Part shown: piece by piece, positions 16,175-28,771 of the stretch | Numbering within the stretch: the first letter of the stretch is position 1 | Layout of the letters: every line of letters begins with the position of its first letter | Assembly (NCBI GenBank): GCA_963806535.1 | Contig: CAWDYC010000008.1 | Span: 128,001-192,000 of the forward strand | Source of the DNA: Candidatus Bathyarchaeota archaeon | Lineage (GTDB): Archaea > Thermoproteota > Bathyarchaeia > Bathyarchaeales > Bathycorpusculaceae | DNA length: 64,000 bases | Direction: 5' to 3' | Made by a program: the position numbers and the translations under genes | The notes under the pieces: generated by a model | Seen by the model: only the letters and a program-made list of their open reading frames with translations | The model's database searches: none | What the model was told of the DNA's origin: nothing

Positions 16175-17848
16175 TTATGATTTAACTTGTAGAGCGGCCT
16201 TCTTGGCAATATCTTCCGTTAACATTCCGATGAGATGGCCGTTTTTAACTATGGCTGCGCGTTTCATACCTTTCTCGATCATCAGTTTCATGGCTGAAAT
16301 CATGGATTGGTCTCCTTGCAGGATTATGAGCGGTGTGTAAGTGAGGTCTTTGGCAAGAGTTTTTTTAGGGTCTTTGTGTTCTTCAACTATATCTCTTAAG
16401 ATGTCCTTTTCGTTTATTATTCCTAGTGGCCGGTGATTCTCAGTTATTAAGATTGAGACAACTCCGTTTTGCAGCATTTTATTGACCAGTTGGGTTGCTG
16501 TTTCGGATGTTGAAACTTCAATTGAGGGTAGTTTAGTGCCGGCTTGTTCGCTGATTTCTGAAATATCTATGCCTCTCTTCCAAATATCGTCCAGCATTTC
16601 GCTTACTCTTTCAATTTGACTAGGGTCAGTGGAGTACATTGTGTCAACCAAGGAAAGGGCGGATTCGGTTTCAAAATCACTCAGAGGAGGCATTTTGAAC
16701 ATGAAGAGGTACTTGTCATCAACAAGCATCATTGTTAAGTAGCTAATCGGTACATGTTTGATTTCGTAACTTTTTGAAAGCTTTTGTGCTGGCTCAAGAT
16801 TGTCAAGGTCAATTGACGCCATTATTCTGACATCTAAGTCCTTATTTAGATATTTTACTATGGGGTCATTTTCAGCGAGACGGTTGATGCTTTGGGATGT
16901 AGTAATTAGAACAACTTCTTTTTTTGCGGATTCCAGAATCTTTGTGACTTTGTTCCATGCTTCGTCTGCGTCTTTAATGACAAGCGTTTCGCCAATTGGT
17001 ATTCCGGTCTTTATCTCGTCAATTCGTCTTGATGCGTCAACTCCGCTTTGCCACATTTGGCCGAAGAAAGCTTTCAGAACTGAAATGAACATTTTATCGT
17101 TAATCCATAGGCCTTCATCTTCTAAATTCAAAACGGAAGCTTCATTGCCAAAAGGTGCGTACAGCATGGCTTCTTCTTCATCTTTTATTAAAAATCTTGG
17201 GAAAAATTTGGAGTTCATTCCGACATGTCGGACCTTCATATTTAGTTTTTCCGCAGCAATATTTTTGTCGAGTCTTTCAGCAACTTTGAGGTTTTCATGG
17301 GAAATGTCAGTTATAATTTGAAATTGAACTTTTCGTTCTTGGGCAGAAACTTCAGCTGTATCAAATATTCCGGCTATGTCTTCTTGAATTAAACCTAAAG
17401 CGGTTGTTAAGACTGTCACTTGAGTTTTTGACTCTTCAATCATGGATAGCATTTTGGAGTGAATTTTCTTTTTTCCTGTAATAATGGAGAATTTGGCTAC
17501 TGGATATTCAGATTCAGGAGCACTTATTGATTGCCAAGCTGTTAAAAGGCTTGACTTTTGATCGTTTAGATTGGTAACTTCAGTCTTTTTAGCGTTGATG
17601 AATTGATCAACCAGTGCTTCAAAAGGAACAATCGTAAACCGGGTAGGCCGCTCCAAAGTTGCTTCTATGAAGCCTTTTTCCTGCAGTTTTTTGAAGGTTC
17701 GGTAAGCTTGGACTCGTTCCATTTTAAGTCTTTTAGCCACAAAGCTTGTTGATTGTACACCACTTTTGGCAAGAAACATGTAAACTTGGATTTCTCGTTT
17801 TGATAACCCGAGAATCTGGAGGAATTTGGTTACATCCTTTTCACTCAA
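16175..17848 (-). CDS. TrmB-family regulator with duplicated effector domains and C-terminal CBS pair
   Basis: TrmB wHTH (LGLSKRE...YRTFKKLQEKG), two PLD-like effector repeats, CBS pair (GIINEKDI, GMLTEDI). Confidence 0.88.
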   Translation of the reverse strand: MSEKDVTKFLQILGLSKREIQVYMFLAKSGVQSTSFVAKRLKMERVQAYRTFKKLQEKGFIEATLERPTRFTIVPFEALVDQFINAKKTEVTNLNDQKSSLLTAWQSISAPESEYPVAKFSIITGKKKIHSKMLSMIEESKTQVTVLTTALGLIQEDIAGIFDTAEVSAQERKVQFQIITDISHENLKVAERLDKNIAAEKLNMKVRHVGMNSKFFPRFLIKDEEEAMLYAPFGNEASVLNLEDEGLWINDKMFISVLKAFFGQMWQSGVDASRRIDEIKTGIPIGETLVIKDADEAWNKVTKILESAKKEVVLITTSQSINRLAENDPIVKYLNKDLDVRIMASIDLDNLEPAQKLSKSYEIKHVPISYLTMMLVDDKYLFMFKMPPLSDFETESALSLVDTMYSTDPSQIERVSEMLDDIWKRGIDISEISEQAGTKLPSIEVSTSETATQLVNKMLQNGVVSILITENHRPLGIINEKDILRDIVEEHKDPKKTLAKDLTYTPLIILQGDQSMISAMKLMIEKGMKRAAIVKNGHLIGMLTEDIAKKAALQVKS

Positions 17849-21544: not shown

Positions 21545-23014
21545 CTATTTTTTTCCAAGAGGAAATTCAAGGGTGAACCTTGTTCCTTTTCCAACTTGGC
21601 TTTCAACACTTACCTTACCATTTAAGGCCTCAGTCAACTTTTTGACAACTGCCAAACCGAAACCTTGTCCTTTAGCTTTAGTTGTAAATAGAGGCTTGAA
21701 GAGTTTATCTTTTGATTCCTCTGGTATACCTACACCGGTATCTTGGACAGTTATCACCAACGTATGGTCGTTGTTTTCAGCTTCAAGGGTTAGTTTTCCA
21801 CCTTCTGGCATGGCTTGAACTGCATTTGAAGATAGATTTATTAGAATTCTCTTCATAGCGGCAGGATCGGTCAATAATTTATTAAGGCAAGGCTCTACAG
21901 AATAAAAGACATTTATGTTTTCAGGAATTTTCAAGTTTGAAAAAACATCATCAACAATTTTTGTAAAATCAGTTTCTTCAATTGAAGCAGCTATGGGTTT
22001 AGCATAGTCTTGAAGATCGGTGACAATCTTGTTTATATAAAATGTATTATCTTCAATTGATTGTACGCTTTCCTGCAGGTACTTTTTAGATTGGCTATCA
22101 GGCAAATCCTCTATTTCTTTTTTTGATAAGAACAGCTCGCCGATGATAGCTTGCAAGGGATTGCGGATGTCATGACCAACCATCCCCGCTGTAGCGCCAA
22201 TTGCAGCTAGACGTTCATTATCTTGAAGCTGTTTTTCTAAACTCATACGCTTACTAATATCATTAAATAATATGCCCACTTTCCAGGGTTTTCCTTCACC
22301 GACTGGGAATGCAAAAACATCGTAATAACGGTTCAATGCTCTTGCTTCATTAGTGAAACGAACGGGCTCTCCTGTCATGGCGACCTTACCGTAGATCTGA
22401 AACCAATGCTCTTCATGATTTGGAACAAGACTGCGCATTAATTTTCCCGCTGCGTCATGTAATCCCGTCTGTTTCTCAAATGAAGCGTTAATTTCCAGAA
22501 ACCGATAGTCCAGAGGCTTTGCATCTGCATCAAAAATCAACTCGACAATGCAGAAGCCCTCGTCAATCGAATCAAACAATGTTCGGTATCTTGCCTCACT
22601 TACCTTCAGCGAAAGCGTACGTTTTTCAACGGTTTCCTCTAATTTCTTACGTTCAATGGCATAACGTATCGCTCGAAATAGTAAAGTAGCGTCAAACTTT
22701 CCTTTGATAAGATAGTCTTGCGCACCTCTTCGGACTGCTTCTAAAGCTACTGAGTCATCGTTGAAACCAGTTAAGACAAGAATAGGTAATTGTTTCGCGG
22801 ATGCATGTATCTTTTCAAAAGTATTTAGACCCTGACTATCAGGCAGTCCAAGATCAAGCAAAATGGCATCTATGCCATTTGCTGCCAAACGATCTAATCC
22901 TTTTGAAAGCCGGTCGACGCGCTCTATTTTGCGTATACCCGTTTGTTCAGTTAGCATCTCTTCAATAAGCCGAGCGTCACCAGCGTTGTCTTCAATCAGC
23001 AAGATTCTAATTTT
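21545..23014 (-). CDS. hybrid sensor kinase REC-PAS-HisKA-HATPase
   Basis: KIRILLIEDN...LLDLGLPD receiver, PAS, H-box GHDIRNPL, N/G boxes; true start unclear (see findings). Confidence 0.92.
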   Translation of the reverse strand, partial: KIRILLIEDNAGDARLIEEMLTEQTGIRKIERVDRLSKGLDRLAANGIDAILLDLGLPDSQGLNTFEKIHASAKQLPILVLTGFNDDSVALEAVRRGAQDYLIKGKFDATLLFRAIRYAIERKKLEETVEKRTLSLKVSEARYRTLFDSIDEGFCIVELIFDADAKPLDYRFLEINASFEKQTGLHDAAGKLMRSLVPNHEEHWFQIYGKVAMTGEPVRFTNEARALNRYYDVFAFPVGEGKPWKVGILFNDISKRMSLEKQLQDNERLAAIGATAGMVGHDIRNPLQAIIGELFLSKKEIEDLPDSQSKKYLQESVQSIEDNTFYINKIVTDLQDYAKPIAASIEETDFTKIVDDVFSNLKIPENINVFYSVEPCLNKLLTDPAAMKRILINLSSNAVQAMPEGGKLTLEAENNDHTLVITVQDTGVGIPEESKDKLFKPLFTTKAKGQGFGLAVVKKLTEALNGKVSVESQVGKGTRFTLEFPLGKK

Positions 23015-23464
23015 CTATTGCTCCTTTGGAGGCAGTTTTACTATAGTGAACCAGAATTCTTCAAGTGCATGAATTATTTCAACGAATCGGTTTAAGTCAA
23101 CAGGTTTGGTGATGTAGGCGTTTGCATGCAGATTGTATGTTTTGATTATGTCTTCATCTGCTTTTGATGTTGTTAGGATAATCACGGGAATATGCTTAAG
23201 CTTGGGGTCTTTCTTGACTTCAGCTAATACTTCTCGACCATCTTTTCTAGGCAAATTCAAATCCAATAGTATCATATCGGGAATCGGGGCATCTACAAAT
23301 TGTCCTTGCCTATGCAAGAAGTCCATTGCTTCGACGCCATCTTTAGCGACGTAAATTTCGTTTAGTACTTTTGCATCTTTTAGGGCTTCTTTGGTTAACC
23401 GAACGTCTCCAGGATTGTCTTCCACTAGTAAAATATCCACCGCTTCTGCATTAACTTTCTTCAT
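23015..23464 (-). CDS. single-domain response regulator (Rcp1-like)
   Basis: LLVEDNPGD, LLDLNLP, ILTTS, YITKP, FW tail. Confidence 0.95.
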   Translation of the reverse strand: MKKVNAEAVDILLVEDNPGDVRLTKEALKDAKVLNEIYVAKDGVEAMDFLHRQGQFVDAPIPDMILLDLNLPRKDGREVLAEVKKDPKLKHIPVIILTTSKADEDIIKTYNLHANAYITKPVDLNRFVEIIHALEEFWFTIVKLPPKEQ

Positions 23465-23469
23465 TTCTT

Positions 23470-25347
23470 TTAATCACTCCTTTTTTGTTTGTTTAATGTG
23501 AAATAGATAGTTGAACCTTTTCCCACTTGTGACTTGATCCAGATTCGTCCGCCATGGCGTTCTACGATCCTTTTACAAACGGCAAGACCTATTCCGGAAC
23601 CAGGATATTCTTCTCTGGTATGAAGACGCTGGAAAATCTTGAAAAGCCTATCGAAATATTCTGGGGCAATACCTATGCCGTTATCACGCACTGAAAAAAC
23701 GTATTCATTTCCTCTATCTTGAGCTGACACGTGAACTCGTGAGGGCTCTTTTCCATGGAACTTTATTGCGTTGCCGATCAAATTTTGAAGCAGTTGAACA
23801 AGTTGCCCTCCATCAGCGTTAACTACTGGAAGCTTATCATGCGTCACCACTGCGTTGTTTTCCGTAATTGACGCCTTCAGATTCAGAAGCACTACTTCAA
23901 GGGTTGACTCAAGGTTCGTTGGTTCAAATGGCTTGCCAAGTCTGCTAACTCGAGAATAAGTCAAAAGGTCATCGATTAAGCCTCGCATACGGTTGGCTCC
24001 ATCAACAGCGTAGCCAATGAACTCGTCAGCGTCCTTGTCTAATTTTCCTTTGTATCTCCGCTCCAATAGCTGGACGTAACTTGCTACCATGCGCAGTGGC
24101 TCTTGAAGGTCATGCGATGCTACATAGGCAAATTGTTCCAATTCAGAATTTGACTGTTTGAGTTTTTCCATGGTTAGTTTTATTTCATTCTCCATTGCGT
24201 TGCGTTCGGTAACATCTCTTGCAGCTGCAAAAACACCTTGTATGTCGCCTTGTGGGTTTCTATAAATTGATGCGTTGTACAATACGTCGGTAATTTTGCC
24301 CGACTTATGACGAATTGCCAAGGGATAATCTTTGACAAAGCCTTCGGTGAAAACTTTCTGGTATCCTGCTCTTGCATCTCTGGGTTCAGTGAAATAATCG
24401 GAAAAATCGCTATCGACAAGTTCTTCTCGAGTGCATCCGGTAACGTCTTCAGTTGCCTTGTTAACATCGGTAATCTTTCCTTCCTTGCTAATAGTAACCA
24501 GCGGGTCTAAGCTTGCCTCGATTAAGCTTCTTGAATAAAGTGAGGCAGCAAACAATTTTTGTTCAGCTATTTTCCGTTCGGTTACATCACGCGCAGCTGC
24601 GAAAACTCCCTGAATTGTACCATCTTCATTTCTGTAAACTGTGGCATTGTATAATACATCAGTGATTTTGCCAGATTGGTGACGTATAGCAAGCGGGTAA
24701 TCTGTAACGTATCCCTCTGTAAACACTTTTTTGTAACCGATCCGAGCTTTTTCTGGTTCCGTAAAGTAATCTGAAAAATCGCTTCCGATCAATTGATCGC
24801 GTGTGTAGCCAGTGACTTCCTCAGTTGATTTGTTGACGTCCGTGATTTTACCTTCTGCGCTAATAGTAACTAAAGGATCAAGGCTTGCTTCGATTAAGCT
24901 ACGAGAATATAAAGAGACGCTTTTCAGCTTCTCTTCTGCTTGCCTACGCTCAGTGATGTCCCGAGCTGCAGCAAAGACACCTTGAATTTCTCCAGCCGCG
25001 TTCTTGTAAACGCTTGCATTGTACAATACATAGGTTACTTTGCCTGATTTATGACGAATAGCCAGAGGATAATCTCTTACATAGCCTTCCGTGAACACTT
25101 TTCTGTATCCAGCTCGAGCCTCCTGAGGTTTGGTGAAGTAGTCGGAAAAATCGCTTCCAATCAATAAGTCCCTTGAACATCCAGTGACTAGTTCTGTGGC
25201 TTTGTTGACGTCGGTTATTTTTCCTTCGGCACTGATTGTCACAAGAGGATCAAGGCTTGCTTCAATAAGACTTCGTGCATATAACGATGCAGAACGAGTC
25301 TCATCAGCCGTTTTTCCCTTAACCGGTAGCTTTTCGTTTTTCACCAA
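23470..25347 (-). CDS. sensor histidine kinase with three tandem PAS/PAC domains
   Basis: Three ~124-aa repeats starting SLIEASLDPLVTIS; H-box SHDLQEPLR; DNGIG, GSGIGLA. Confidence 0.95.
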   Translation of the reverse strand: MVKNEKLPVKGKTADETRSASLYARSLIEASLDPLVTISAEGKITDVNKATELVTGCSRDLLIGSDFSDYFTKPQEARAGYRKVFTEGYVRDYPLAIRHKSGKVTYVLYNASVYKNAAGEIQGVFAAARDITERRQAEEKLKSVSLYSRSLIEASLDPLVTISAEGKITDVNKSTEEVTGYTRDQLIGSDFSDYFTEPEKARIGYKKVFTEGYVTDYPLAIRHQSGKITDVLYNATVYRNEDGTIQGVFAAARDVTERKIAEQKLFAASLYSRSLIEASLDPLVTISKEGKITDVNKATEDVTGCTREELVDSDFSDYFTEPRDARAGYQKVFTEGFVKDYPLAIRHKSGKITDVLYNASIYRNPQGDIQGVFAAARDVTERNAMENEIKLTMEKLKQSNSELEQFAYVASHDLQEPLRMVASYVQLLERRYKGKLDKDADEFIGYAVDGANRMRGLIDDLLTYSRVSRLGKPFEPTNLESTLEVVLLNLKASITENNAVVTHDKLPVVNADGGQLVQLLQNLIGNAIKFHGKEPSRVHVSAQDRGNEYVFSVRDNGIGIAPEYFDRLFKIFQRLHTREEYPGSGIGLAVCKRIVERHGGRIWIKSQVGKGSTIYFTLNKQKRSD

Positions 25348-25597
25348 ATATAGGTTGCCTTCGTAATAATTTTCAATTAATTAGAGACTATTACAAAATA
25401 TTTGATGATAAAAGCTTTTTCATTTGGTGTAACAAAATTGGACGTACATTATAAAATCATAAGTTATCGCTCAAGTACAATACCTGTCGTGGGGGGTTCG
25501 ACATTTTTGGGGGCATAGTGAAGCATTAGTTAAGTTTAAAATCTTCTCTAAAGATATAGGTAGAGCACCAATCTGAGATCGTAGGGGAAAAGGGTTT

Positions 25598-27814
25598 ATG
25601 GTAAATCAGCCACCGCAACGCGCACGCGGCGTAAAAGTACTCAAAGCCGTCTCGTCACCTCTCAGACTGCAAATCTTAAACTTACTTTTCGACAAAAGCG
25701 CTCTCTCGTACACTGAATTAATGAACCAGTTGAAAATGAATCCCAGCCGAGATGCAGGTAGATTCGCTTATCACCTAAAATTTATGTTAAAAGCTGATTT
25801 GGTTGAGGCAGATGTTGAAGCAAAAAAATATTATCTGACTGACCTTGGCAAAATGGTTCTTGATGTTGCTGATCGTGTGGAAAAGAAAGCGTTTAAGCCG
25901 AAAGGAATGATTGTCCGCACATCCCATTTAACACTTGAAGAGTTTGACGCAAACAAAATAGCTAATTCTCTAATAAAAGAAGCAAAAGTGCCGGCTGAAC
26001 TTGCTCAAAAAGCAGCTAAAGAAACTGAAAAACGTTTAATCAAATCAAAAACAAAGTATTTGACTGCCGCTTTAATCAGGGAAGTCGTGAATGGTATTTT
26101 AATTGAGAAGGGCTATGAAGAATACCGCCATAAACTCACTAGAGTCGGCATGCCCGTGCATGAGGTAACAGTTTCAATTGAATCAAAAGACCAAACCACT
26201 GATTCAACTGCTTTACTTATTAGGGCAGGTCAAGCAGTTCTTAGCGAGTACACTTTACTCAACATTTTTCCAAGAGATATTGCTGACGCTCACCTTTCAG
26301 GTGCCATCCACATTGACAATTTAGGCACATGGATACTGAAACCAAACGAAGTCAGCCATGACATGCGTTTCTTCTTCCAAAACGGGGTCAAACTCGACAA
26401 TCCACTTCAAACATCAATGGAGCCACCGAGAGATTTTGAATCTGCTTTGTCAATTGCATTCAATATGCTTTTGCATGCAAGCAAAGAAACAAATCGGGTC
26501 CAGATATGTAATTACTTCAACATTTTTCTTGCACCCTTTGCTAAAGGTGCTGAAACGACAAGAATAAAGGAAAATTTACGTTTGTTTATTTTAAACGTAA
26601 ACCAACAAACCGAATCTACATTAGTTCTTGAACTTTCAATTCCAAAATCAACCGCTGAAAAAGAAGCAATGGGCCCACTTGGAAAAATCGCAGGAAAATA
26701 TGGCGATTATGCTCAAGAAAGCCAATTGCTGGCCTCAATTATTATTGATATATTCTTGGAAGAAAACGCCAAAAAACCCCTACTTAATCCTAAACTCATA
26801 ATTAGGATTAACCAGGACAGTTTAGCCGATGAAAACGCCAAGGAAATTCTATTTAAGGCACACCGATTATCTGCAGAGAGAGGAACACCCTATTTTGCCA
26901 ACATAACAAAAAAAGAAACCGAAAACACTGTTTTCTCACCTTCAGGAGCTAAACTTTCAGCGGACCTGACAGGAGATTGGGAAACCGACACACTTCGGAC
27001 AGGCTGTCTTGGTTGCGTAACAATAAATTTGCCCAGAATTGTTCAAGAAAGTGAGAAGGACAAAAACAAATTTTTCGAGCTTGTAAGGGAACGTTTTGAA
27101 GTTGCCGCTCGAACCATAGGAATCAAGAACAATGCATTAAAGCAATTTGGAAAAAACTCCTTGCCGTTCCTGCTAAAAAGCTCCAGTGGAGACACTTATT
27201 TCAGGCTTGAAAACTGCTCCAGAATTATCAACTTGGCTGGATTTAGAGAGGCAGTAGAAGCTTTTACCGAAAAAAACATTAACTCTGATGAGAGCCGCAA
27301 GTTTGCCGAAGAAATCATTCAGAATCTTCTGGCCTTCAAACAGAAAATCGGCAGAAAACATGGAAAGAGACTGTACCCCGTCATTCTTAGCAATCCTGAA
27401 GCGTCTGAGAGGCTCGCCCAATTAGACATTGAGAAGTATGGAGTCGCCAAGACAAAGTTTTCGGGAACCAGAGAAAAACCATATTACTCAACCGCTAGAC
27501 GATTCCAAGTGAAGGCTGCTGAAATTCTAACCATAGCACCCGAAATACTAGAAATGGCGCAAAAAATGAAGGGGCTAAGTGTCGGTGGAACCCTGGATAT
27601 TATAGAGTTAGATGGTGCTGAAGTAAAACCTGAAGCATTAATGGATTTAACAAAACGCATTATTGAAAACCAATCTTTGGAGTTTTTCACTTACAACCGC
27701 ATCATCAGTTACTGTGATAACTGCAAGAAAAGCTGGTTTGGAACAGTTCACAAATGTCCATCCTGCGGCTCAATGAGCGCATTGACGACGTTCGATCGCT
27801 TCACTTCTATATGA
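25598..27814 (+). CDS. ArsR-like wHTH + ATP-cone + NrdD-like (class III RNR) fusion, apparently catalytically inactive
   Basis: wHTH in aa ~10-95, ATP cone (IVRTS...EEFDANKIANSL), ADAHLSGAIHI, VTINLPRI, CDNC/CPSC Zn ribbon; no RxxGY glycyl loop. Confidence 0.85.
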   Translation: MVNQPPQRARGVKVLKAVSSPLRLQILNLLFDKSALSYTELMNQLKMNPSRDAGRFAYHLKFMLKADLVEADVEAKKYYLTDLGKMVLDVADRVEKKAFKPKGMIVRTSHLTLEEFDANKIANSLIKEAKVPAELAQKAAKETEKRLIKSKTKYLTAALIREVVNGILIEKGYEEYRHKLTRVGMPVHEVTVSIESKDQTTDSTALLIRAGQAVLSEYTLLNIFPRDIADAHLSGAIHIDNLGTWILKPNEVSHDMRFFFQNGVKLDNPLQTSMEPPRDFESALSIAFNMLLHASKETNRVQICNYFNIFLAPFAKGAETTRIKENLRLFILNVNQQTESTLVLELSIPKSTAEKEAMGPLGKIAGKYGDYAQESQLLASIIIDIFLEENAKKPLLNPKLIIRINQDSLADENAKEILFKAHRLSAERGTPYFANITKKETENTVFSPSGAKLSADLTGDWETDTLRTGCLGCVTINLPRIVQESEKDKNKFFELVRERFEVAARTIGIKNNALKQFGKNSLPFLLKSSSGDTYFRLENCSRIINLAGFREAVEAFTEKNINSDESRKFAEEIIQNLLAFKQKIGRKHGKRLYPVILSNPEASERLAQLDIEKYGVAKTKFSGTREKPYYSTARRFQVKAAEILTIAPEILEMAQKMKGLSVGGTLDIIELDGAEVKPEALMDLTKRIIENQSLEFFTYNRIISYCDNCKKSWFGTVHKCPSCGSMSALTTFDRFTSI

Positions 27815-27817
27815 AAG

Positions 27818-28771
<954 letters not shown>

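Follow-up and report, generated by a model that had tools for sequence, protein, structure and literature searches.

Archaeal proteins that join a winged helix and an ATP-cone to a predicted dead class III ribonucleotide reductase: candidate regulators of DNA-precursor supply

To our knowledge, the regulation of ribonucleotide reductase (RNR) genes in most archaea is largely unknown. The closest described regulator is NrdR (TIGR00244), an RNR-specific repressor of about 150 residues without an RNR barrel, which binds DNA through a Zn ribbon; in the available text of PMC12051234 it controls most bacterial but only few archaeal RNRs. The subject of this report is a gene, here termed psiNrdD, in a 64,000-nucleotide stretch of DNA (the window; contig CAWDYC010000008.1, positions 128,001 to 192,000) from a Candidatus Bathyarchaeota archaeon. 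It lies on the forward strand at positions 25598-27814 of the window, ends in a TGA stop codon at 27812-27814, and encodes 738 residues, in which a winged helix-turn-helix (wHTH) is followed by an ATP-cone and by a predicted dead copy of the class III reductase NrdD. An earlier reading made from the sequence alone had taken the product for an RNR pseudo-enzyme fused to a DNA-binding domain, and for an archaeal analogue of NrdR.

Like NrdR, psiNrdD joins a DNA-binding module to an ATP-cone and is encoded near RNR genes, and its predicted cone superposes on that of S. coelicolor NrdR; NrdR is likely a functional analogy for the family. Unlike NrdR, psiNrdD has an ArsR-type wHTH, a dead NrdD body of 530 residues and a cone that lacks the Lys-Arg pair. 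With the NrdD enzymes of phage T4, T. maritima, P. copri and S. thermophilus, it shares the barrel fold, the Zn ribbon, the position of the cone and the NLPR strand, but it lacks the glycyl-radical Gly, the thiyl Cys, the second active-site Cys, the HxHD motif and the NxN flap, carries an extra wHTH, and scores below the cut-off of the NrdD equivalog TIGR02487 (260.1 bits against 326.35; NCBIfam). Its predicted five-helix, two-strand N-terminal fold, including both dimerisation helices, is that of ArsR/SmtB repressors (SmtB, CzrA, CadC, HlyU), and its recognition helix likewise ends in Y-H-L-x-x-L. Unlike these repressors, the proposed sensor would be the fused cone and dead enzyme rather than a metal site, and the score to the ArsR profile NF033788 (31.6 bits; NCBIfam) lies below the cut-off of 55. 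Sensor domains derived from enzymes are known from PurR of B. subtilis, which is phosphoribosyltransferase-like, and from the Nudix-based NrtR; psiNrdD resembles both in the fusion of a DNA-binding domain to an inactive copy of an enzyme of the pathway concerned.

A literature search found no published regulator that uses an RNR body, and no paper describing a fusion of helix-turn-helix (HTH), ATP-cone and NrdD or a dead-NrdD regulator; supplements, which lay outside the search, could list such sequences. The available text of PMC9669993 and PMC9531940 contained no mention of an HTH, winged or DNA-binding domain. The psiNrdD family is apparently undescribed.

A class III reductase body without its catalytic residues

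The modules named by the sequence-only reading, namely an ArsR-like wHTH, an ATP-cone, an NrdD-like barrel and an intact Zn ribbon, were borne out by Pfam and by the predicted structure. The ArsR/SmtB-type wHTH spans residues 6-98 (25613-25891) and rests on Pfam matches to HTH_5/ArsR (residues 20-70, 27.4 bits versus a cut-off of 22) and DUF7347 (residues 14-89, 31.3 bits), on the secondary structure predicted by AlphaFold2 and on VIA-align comparisons. A divergent ATP-cone with its linker follows at residues 103-186 (25904-26155), identified by the ATP-cone profile PF03477 (residues 105-176, 30.3 bits versus 25.8), by invariant columns and by fold matches to 5olk, 7p37 and 9d3x. The NrdD-like alpha/beta barrel, predicted to be catalytically dead, occupies residues 211-700 (26228-27697) according to Foldseek and to the NRDD profile PF13597, which matched residues 211-734 with 238.7 bits over profile positions 17-538 of 562 and left its glycyl-loop end without a match. 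With 68 family members as input, AlphaFold2 gave a confident full-length model (predicted local distance difference test score, pLDDT, 89.7; predicted template-modelling score, pTM, 0.81). The best PDB matches of this model in Foldseek were the NrdD structures of S. thermophilus, P. copri, T. maritima and phage T4, with an E value of 7e-27 to 9d3x and template-modelling scores (target) of up to 0.75 to the T4 and T. maritima enzymes.

Within this recognizable body, the catalytic residues are replaced. In a HMMER alignment, SPMGCRS of T4 NrdD was paired with the finger-loop remnant SPSGAKL (residues 447-453, 26936-26956), which places Ala451 opposite the thiyl-radical Cys290 of T4. The same column shows no preference for Cys across the 68 members (L17, S10, V9, I9, T4, A3 and others), and Cys was found in at most two of them; P0121 and P0131 are two proteins that keep a Cys at the thiyl position. 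Profile alignment sets Glu251 at the position of the second active-site Cys (Cys79 in T4, Cys125 in T. maritima). The triphosphate motif is given as HxHD for P. copri NrdD in the available text of PMC11226230, and as HYHD, together with Arg116 and Lys501, for the T. maritima enzyme in that of PMC4493059. Of the residues compared at this site (T. maritima Tyr112, His114, Asp115 and Arg116, along with Cys125), the HxHD position reads H238-I-D240-N241-L242 in psiNrdD according to the profile alignment and the family columns, so that Arg116 has become Leu242; Lys501 has become Glu601, and the NxN flap segment is gone from the profile alignment. One crystal form of T. maritima NrdD, as described in the same part of PMC4493059, has Ile at the loop tip although the sequence has an SCCR motif; no SCCR-type motif occurs anywhere in the psiNrdD sequence.

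At the C-terminus, the protein ends in ...CPSCGSMSALTTFDRFTSI, directly followed by TGA. RFTS of the glycyl-radical loop vestige RFTSI (residues 734-738, 27797-27811) aligns with RVVG of the RVVGY motif in the genuine NrdD of the same genome, such that Ser737 stands for the radical-bearing Gly and the stop codon comes one residue on. No R..G[YF] motif was found in any usable frame downstream, where the DNA is taken up by the end of the neighbouring gene pyrB, and read-through of the TGA codon would add only 9 residues. The absence of an RxxGY loop, of an alternative frame restoring it and of a Cys in the finger loop had all been claimed earlier, and each claim held.

The Zn ribbon (CxxC...CxxC, 27713-27766) is preserved: its four residues, Cys 706, 709, 720 and 723, occur in every one of the 68 aligned members and are the only conserved cysteines of the family, the remaining ones (304, 470, 473 and 540) being unconserved. 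In the barrel, N477, P479 and R480 of the NLPR strand are conserved. Judged by its residues, the barrel is without radical chemistry and substrate binding, and psiNrdD is a conserved pseudo-enzyme of RNR descent bearing a wHTH and an ATP-cone, as the earlier reading had proposed.

Conservation of the family, its winged helix and its cone

An exhaustive search returned 1761 relatives at E <= 1e-3. A word-index search listed over 120 clusters with identities of 76-89%; almost all are 737-739 residues long and have the same four Pfam domains, and they are named 'anaerobic ribonucleoside-triphosphate reductase' and, once, 'ArsR family transcriptional regulator'. The 68 HTH-bearing representatives of the family alignment (A1) match DUF7347 in 68, ATP-cone in 67 and NRDD in 67 cases, counts that are not independent because the members were picked for an N-terminal HTH. 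Comparison of psiNrdD with five orthologues gave ratios of nonsynonymous to synonymous substitution (dN/dS) of 0.04-0.07, and a frame of at least 725 residues is kept in 64 of 75 related loci (one of the 75 being a distant Asgard copy); psiNrdD is therefore not a decaying gene.

The wHTH and the cone with its linker are the most conserved parts of the protein, whereas the columns of the barrel vary much more. Invariant columns of A1 include L30, H59, Y78 and G84 in the wHTH and V106, R107, I121, L125, E128, R161, L168, R182, G184 and P186 in the cone and linker; in the barrel, only N477 and G235 are invariant. Bathyarchaeia, Asgard loci and a Nitrososphaerota-like genome share the stretch YLTAPLIRE...EEYRHKLTRLGxPV in near-identical form. 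Loss of the Gly and the Cys is not complete across the family, since, besides the two proteins with a thiyl Cys, Gly is kept at the glycyl position in some HTH-bearing members (P0172 with RRLGYL, P0135, P0142, P0158 and others), from which the finger-loop Cys is gone. Many other members carry a longer, Gly-less vestige of the glycyl domain (e.g., ...YSRSLAKYLP). Decay of the radical domain has advanced to different extents among lineages.

A separate model of residues 1-200 (pLDDT 78.4) gave no Foldseek match at E <= 0.001 (best 1.4e-3), and VIA-align was then applied to this predicted structure. Residues 3-105 matched ArsR/SmtB and MarR repressors with Z scores of about 12 (SmtB, 8qkf_B, 12.5; CadC, 1u2w_A, 12.3; CzrA, 11.8), in a predicted alpha1-alpha2-alpha3-alphaR-beta-beta-alpha5 fold with five helices and a two-strand wing. 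Residues 102-185 superposed over 83 residues on the cones of L. blandensis NrdB (5olk_A; Z 11.3, root-mean-square deviation 1.9 A), S. coelicolor NrdR (7p37_A; Z 11.2, 2.3 A) and S. thermophilus NrdD (9d3x_A; Z 10.8). By profile and predicted fold, this four-helix domain with its beta-hairpin lid is a true ATP-cone. Its hairpin reads V-R-T-S-H-L, versus V-R-K-K-D-G in the NrdR and V-L-K-R-D-S in the NrdD of the same genome. The charged residues R107, K/R120, E128, R161, E162, R177 and R182 show little or no variation among three archaeal lineages.

The V-R-T-S type of cone is also the sole cone of genuine archaeal NrdDs, both those encoded beside psiNrdD in other genomes (loci L091 and L092) and P0209, and psiNrdD appears to derive from the archaeal NrdD clade that has this cone. 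In a FastTree phylogeny of 95 rows from which the HTH columns had been removed (a quick tree with long branches flagged), all 71 HTH-bearing rows grouped together, along with P0178, a possibly truncated gene call. The next branch outward had a support of 99, and genuine NrdDs fell outside; a single origin of the family is therefore not contradicted.

The family is evidently large and is found in Bathyarchaeia, Nitrososphaerota-like genomes and Asgard archaea. Among 301 sampled Thermoproteota genomes, 264 matched the family profile at E <= 1e-10, real NrdDs counted in, and at least 133 had, among the matches listed, one that began at profile position 10 or earlier and exceeded 620 bits. A match was present in 43 of 43 genomes of the family termed here f12, whose protein from locus L093 clusters with P0199 in a tree with the HTH columns kept; NCBI names in the P0199 cluster are Thaumarchaeota or Nitrososphaerota archaeon and 'ArsR family transcriptional regulator'. 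In a sample of 121 Asgard genomes from the phylum of a Promethearchaeia locus, 31 had a match covering the HTH.

Other forms of NrdD were encountered in the course of the comparison. Proteins resembling NrdD but lacking the HTH and also the Gly and Cys motifs were seen at L094:4176-6083 (P0253) and in P0198, P0207, P0225, P0243, P0248, P0250, P0257 and P0262, some with two cones and one whose gene immediately follows that of an HTH-bearing copy; they may represent a second kind of dead NrdD. Eight genuine NrdDs (P0175, P0176, P0190, P0192, P0194, P0221, P0232 and P0233) are 1000-1700 residues long, twice the normal length, and match the query in 2-5 separate stretches; judging from length only, they probably carry inteins.

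Reductase and pyrimidine genes around psiNrdD

In other Bathyarchaeia (L091, L092 and L095), psiNrdD is followed by a genuine NrdD gene and then by a convergent pyrB, with pyrI on the far side of pyrB. The intervening NrdD has an RITGY motif and a V-R-T-S cone and exceeds the TIGR02487 cut-off (520.5 versus 326.35 bits); in L091 a small thioredoxin-like gene comes after it. Tandem pairs of psiNrdD and NrdD occur in at least 7 genomes among the matches listed for the Thermoproteota sample. The spacers between the two genes at L092:6434-6672 and L095:3069-3236 share the block GTCAAACA..GTGTGTCAATTTT..ACTACA.GATTTTTATA, which may serve nrdD of these lineages as promoter or operator.

In the window, the genuine nrdD is missing from this position, and psiNrdD converges directly on pyrB (aspartate carbamoyltransferase catalytic chain; 27818-28756, reverse strand; TIGR00670, 388.9 bits versus a cut-off of 236.95). 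The sequence-only reading was right about the convergence and slightly wrong in placing the end of pyrB 4 nt away, as 3 nt (27815-27817) lie between the stop codons, that of pyrB being at 27818-27820. A convergent pyrB is the downstream neighbour in 64 of the 76 sources with the gene (75 loci and the window), and the gap between the two genes ranges from -6 to +6 nt in 57 of these 64. The simplest reading is that the tail-to-tail junction in the window is a remnant left after loss of an intervening nrdD. The upstream neighbour varies: agmatine deiminase with a C-N hydrolase in 34 sources, nop5 in 8 and, in 4 sources with the window among them, a histidine kinase. In the window, a histidine kinase, a response regulator and a PAS-rich histidine kinase (21545-25347) stand between nop5-fibrillarin and psiNrdD; this cluster looks like a lineage-specific insertion, because it was found in only 6-8 of 77 sources. 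Among Asgard loci, pyrB was convergent and adjacent in 4 of 11, within 1.5-kb flanks.

In the f12 genomes, psiNrdD accompanies a reductase of another class. In 19 of the 21 genomes with coordinates for both genes, it immediately precedes a class II reductase gene on the same strand, the exceptions being G020, where the two genes are divergent and adjacent, and G257, where they are 5.8 kb apart. In G001, psiNrdD and the next frame are separated by 197 nt, and the second encodes NrdJ (TIGR02504, 727.8 versus 399.95 bits). No NRDD match besides psiNrdD was found in any of the five f12 genomes checked. The retention of psiNrdD next to both class III and class II reductase genes argues most strongly for a role in RNR expression rather than in NrdD chemistry. 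Since it is usually found beside a working reductase or pyrimidine genes, psiNrdD is probably a regulator of DNA-precursor supply.

The genome to which the window belongs (2.95 Mb in 12 contigs, 91.75% complete) contains a separate class III system with intact motifs, and a profile search of the assembly gave no PF02867 match. On contig C11, nrdR, nrdD and nrdG all run in one direction (L001:766-4215), with nrdR (L001:3585-4028; TIGR00244, 153.9 bits versus 124.65) directly upstream of nrdD-nrdG. The genuine NrdD (NF006126, 1081.7 versus 548 bits; TIGR02487, 569.5) bears SMCCR and RVVGY motifs, is the only one in the genome and is 24% identical to psiNrdD. The earlier statement that no nrdG adjoins psiNrdD is accurate, yet an activase gene does exist, the only one in the genome, beside the real nrdD (TIGR02495, 184.5 versus 131.15 bits). 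An inverted repeat, TGTAGTGT...ACACTACA, was observed upstream of nrdR; it resembles paired NrdR boxes.

The region upstream of psiNrdD contains a conserved promoter-like element, ATTAGTTAAGTTTAAAATCTT (25525-25545, forward strand), for which the family consensus is TTAGTTAAGTTTAAACTCT; the consensus includes a 10-bp palindrome, AGTTTAAACT, over a TATA-like box. A second conserved block, TATAGGTAGAGCACC (25555-25569, forward strand; family form AATAGGTAGAGCACC), follows about 24 nt after the TATA-like box, possibly spanning the start of transcription or an operator. Both blocks are common to the 70 upstream regions that were extracted from the 75 loci and the window, and the start of psiNrdD is also conserved. 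In distant homologues (L091-L095), the only upstream feature in common with the window is a TATA box of the TTTAAAC type. Autoregulation of psiNrdD is possible.

Compared with the sequence-only reading, the canonical nrdR-nrdD-nrdG operon, the adjacency to pyrB as a probable remnant, and the linkage of psiNrdD to class II reductase genes in f12 are new here.

Proposed function and its alternatives

On balance, we lean towards the reading that psiNrdD regulates transcription and arose from a duplicated class III RNR, with the cone as its likely sensor or transducer; DNA binding, ligand, dimer and targets are what we infer. The NrdD barrel, its catalysis lost, would probably serve as a dimeric scaffold, while the N-terminal ArsR/SmtB-type winged helix would bind DNA and the divergent cone with its linker, the part under tightest constraint, would act as sensor or transducer. 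A small ligand, most likely an adenine nucleotide or another nucleotide, would bind the cone and alter the way in which the two winged helices of the dimer are presented to DNA, which would switch nucleotide-supply genes at the level of transcription. The likely ancestral target would be the neighbouring reductase gene, namely nrdD in some Bathyarchaeia and the class II gene nrdJ in Nitrososphaerota-like genomes. In the genome analysed here, loss of the adjacent nrdD would have set psiNrdD and pyrB tail to tail, and the promoter of psiNrdD itself is the only candidate site; any control of RNR by psiNrdD in this organism would operate alongside that by NrdR.

If this is true, the family would close a gap in the picture of archaeal RNR regulation with a conserved regulator that arose from a catalytically dead reductase, and would show clearly how an enzyme can become the sensor of the pathway to which it belonged. 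Most public copies are misnamed 'anaerobic ribonucleoside-triphosphate reductase', which falsely implies anaerobic synthesis of deoxyribonucleoside triphosphates (dNTPs), and this extends to genomes that have only the class II enzyme; the finding would correct a widespread mis-annotation. A bolder extension, which we put forward tentatively as a possibility short of probable, is that the family constitutes an ancient archaeal master switch of dNTP supply, derived from class III RNR and older than the split between Thermoproteota and Asgard archaea. Such a switch would control nrdD, nrdJ and possibly pyrimidine synthesis, would sense nucleotides through a non-canonical cone, and here would form, together with NrdR, two layers of control.

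Several observations weigh against the regulatory reading or parts of it. The genome has a true NrdR, located directly upstream of the real nrdD-nrdG, and psiNrdD is therefore no stand-in for NrdR here; the earlier proposal of an archaeal analogue of NrdR, taken as a replacement, fails on this point. Being convergent, psiNrdD and pyrB have no common promoter, and the words of 7-9 nt shared by the upstream region of psiNrdD with those of pyrB and nrdR were only AT-rich and at chance level. A 21-column matrix of the first upstream block, run over the 2.95-Mb genome, scored 23.7 bits at the psiNrdD promoter itself and 16.6 at the next best site; with its own promoter as the sole high-scoring site, the element is neither a general promoter consensus nor the motif of a regulon. 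The substrate site is unlikely to be a sensor, because it is degraded, and the specificity-site Gln161 of T. maritima corresponds, on a rough alignment, to Met. Further adverse points concern the cone. In canonical ATP-cones, a basic Lys-Arg pair of the hairpin holds the phosphates; psiNrdD has Thr108-Ser109 where NrdR has Lys-Lys and NrdD Lys-Arg, Arg107 at the preceding position being invariant in the family. Moreover, genuine NrdDs with two cones (P0184 and P0186) have the V-R-T-S type as the inner one, and inner cones can be ligand-dead, as that of P. aeruginosa NrdA cannot bind ligands according to the available text of PMC9669993. Nucleotide sensing by the psiNrdD cone is about evenly balanced. 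The degraded triphosphate motif and the missing Lys-Arg pair also weigh on the earlier proposal that allosteric sites had been repurposed to report (d)NTP pools.

These features of the cone, together with the lost substrate site, would suit a DNA-binding protein in which the cone is merely a structural linker that takes no nucleotide, the protein responding to another effector or acting as a constitutive or abundance-controlled repressor. We consider this unlikely, given that the charged residues of a mere linker should not stay so constant among three archaeal lineages, and that genuine archaeal NrdDs bear the V-R-T-S cone as their only cone. There is also precedent for a non-catalytic partner, as Rnr4 of yeast is a dead paralogue of R2, and psiNrdD, with its barrel and Zn ribbon retained and a genuine NrdD of the neighbouring clade adjoining it in several Bathyarchaeia, might be a subunit of a working reductase (in a heterodimer or a regulatory complex) rather than a transcription factor. 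However, the only NrdD of its own genome is distant in sequence and encoded on another contig, the f12 genomes checked keep psiNrdD without a class III enzyme, and few parts of the protein are as well conserved as the wHTH with its ArsR-like recognition helix, all of which makes such a role improbable.

The intact and confidently modelled barrel, with its conserved NLPR strand, might also be taken to indicate an enzyme with some other, non-radical chemistry on nucleotides. The lack of any conserved Cys outside the Zn ribbon, the replacement of phosphate-binding residues, partly by acidic ones, and the far greater variability of the barrel compared with the N-terminal module make this very improbable. 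Least credible of all is a decaying pseudogene, or an artefact of annotation or assembly. It could appeal to the truncated C-terminus and to the frames broken in 10 of the 75 related loci, whether by assembly error or real decay, a count that tells to that extent against the regulator as well; but it is contradicted by the low dN/dS, and a length of 738-739 residues in more than 100 clusters and the conserved start and promoter speak against it too. The transcription regulator with a sensing or transducing cone remains the preferred reading.

Two further genes were noted in the same genome. On contig C11, far from pyrB, pyrI adjoins (L110:504-1758) a gene for a 238-residue protein with a DUF7347/ArsR-type wHTH that scores 49.9 bits to the family profile and is fused to a hydrophobic, membrane-like C-terminal part. 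In the window itself, positions 16175-17848 encode a TrmB-type regulator of 557 residues with a C-terminal CBS domain, which is kept in 20 related loci.

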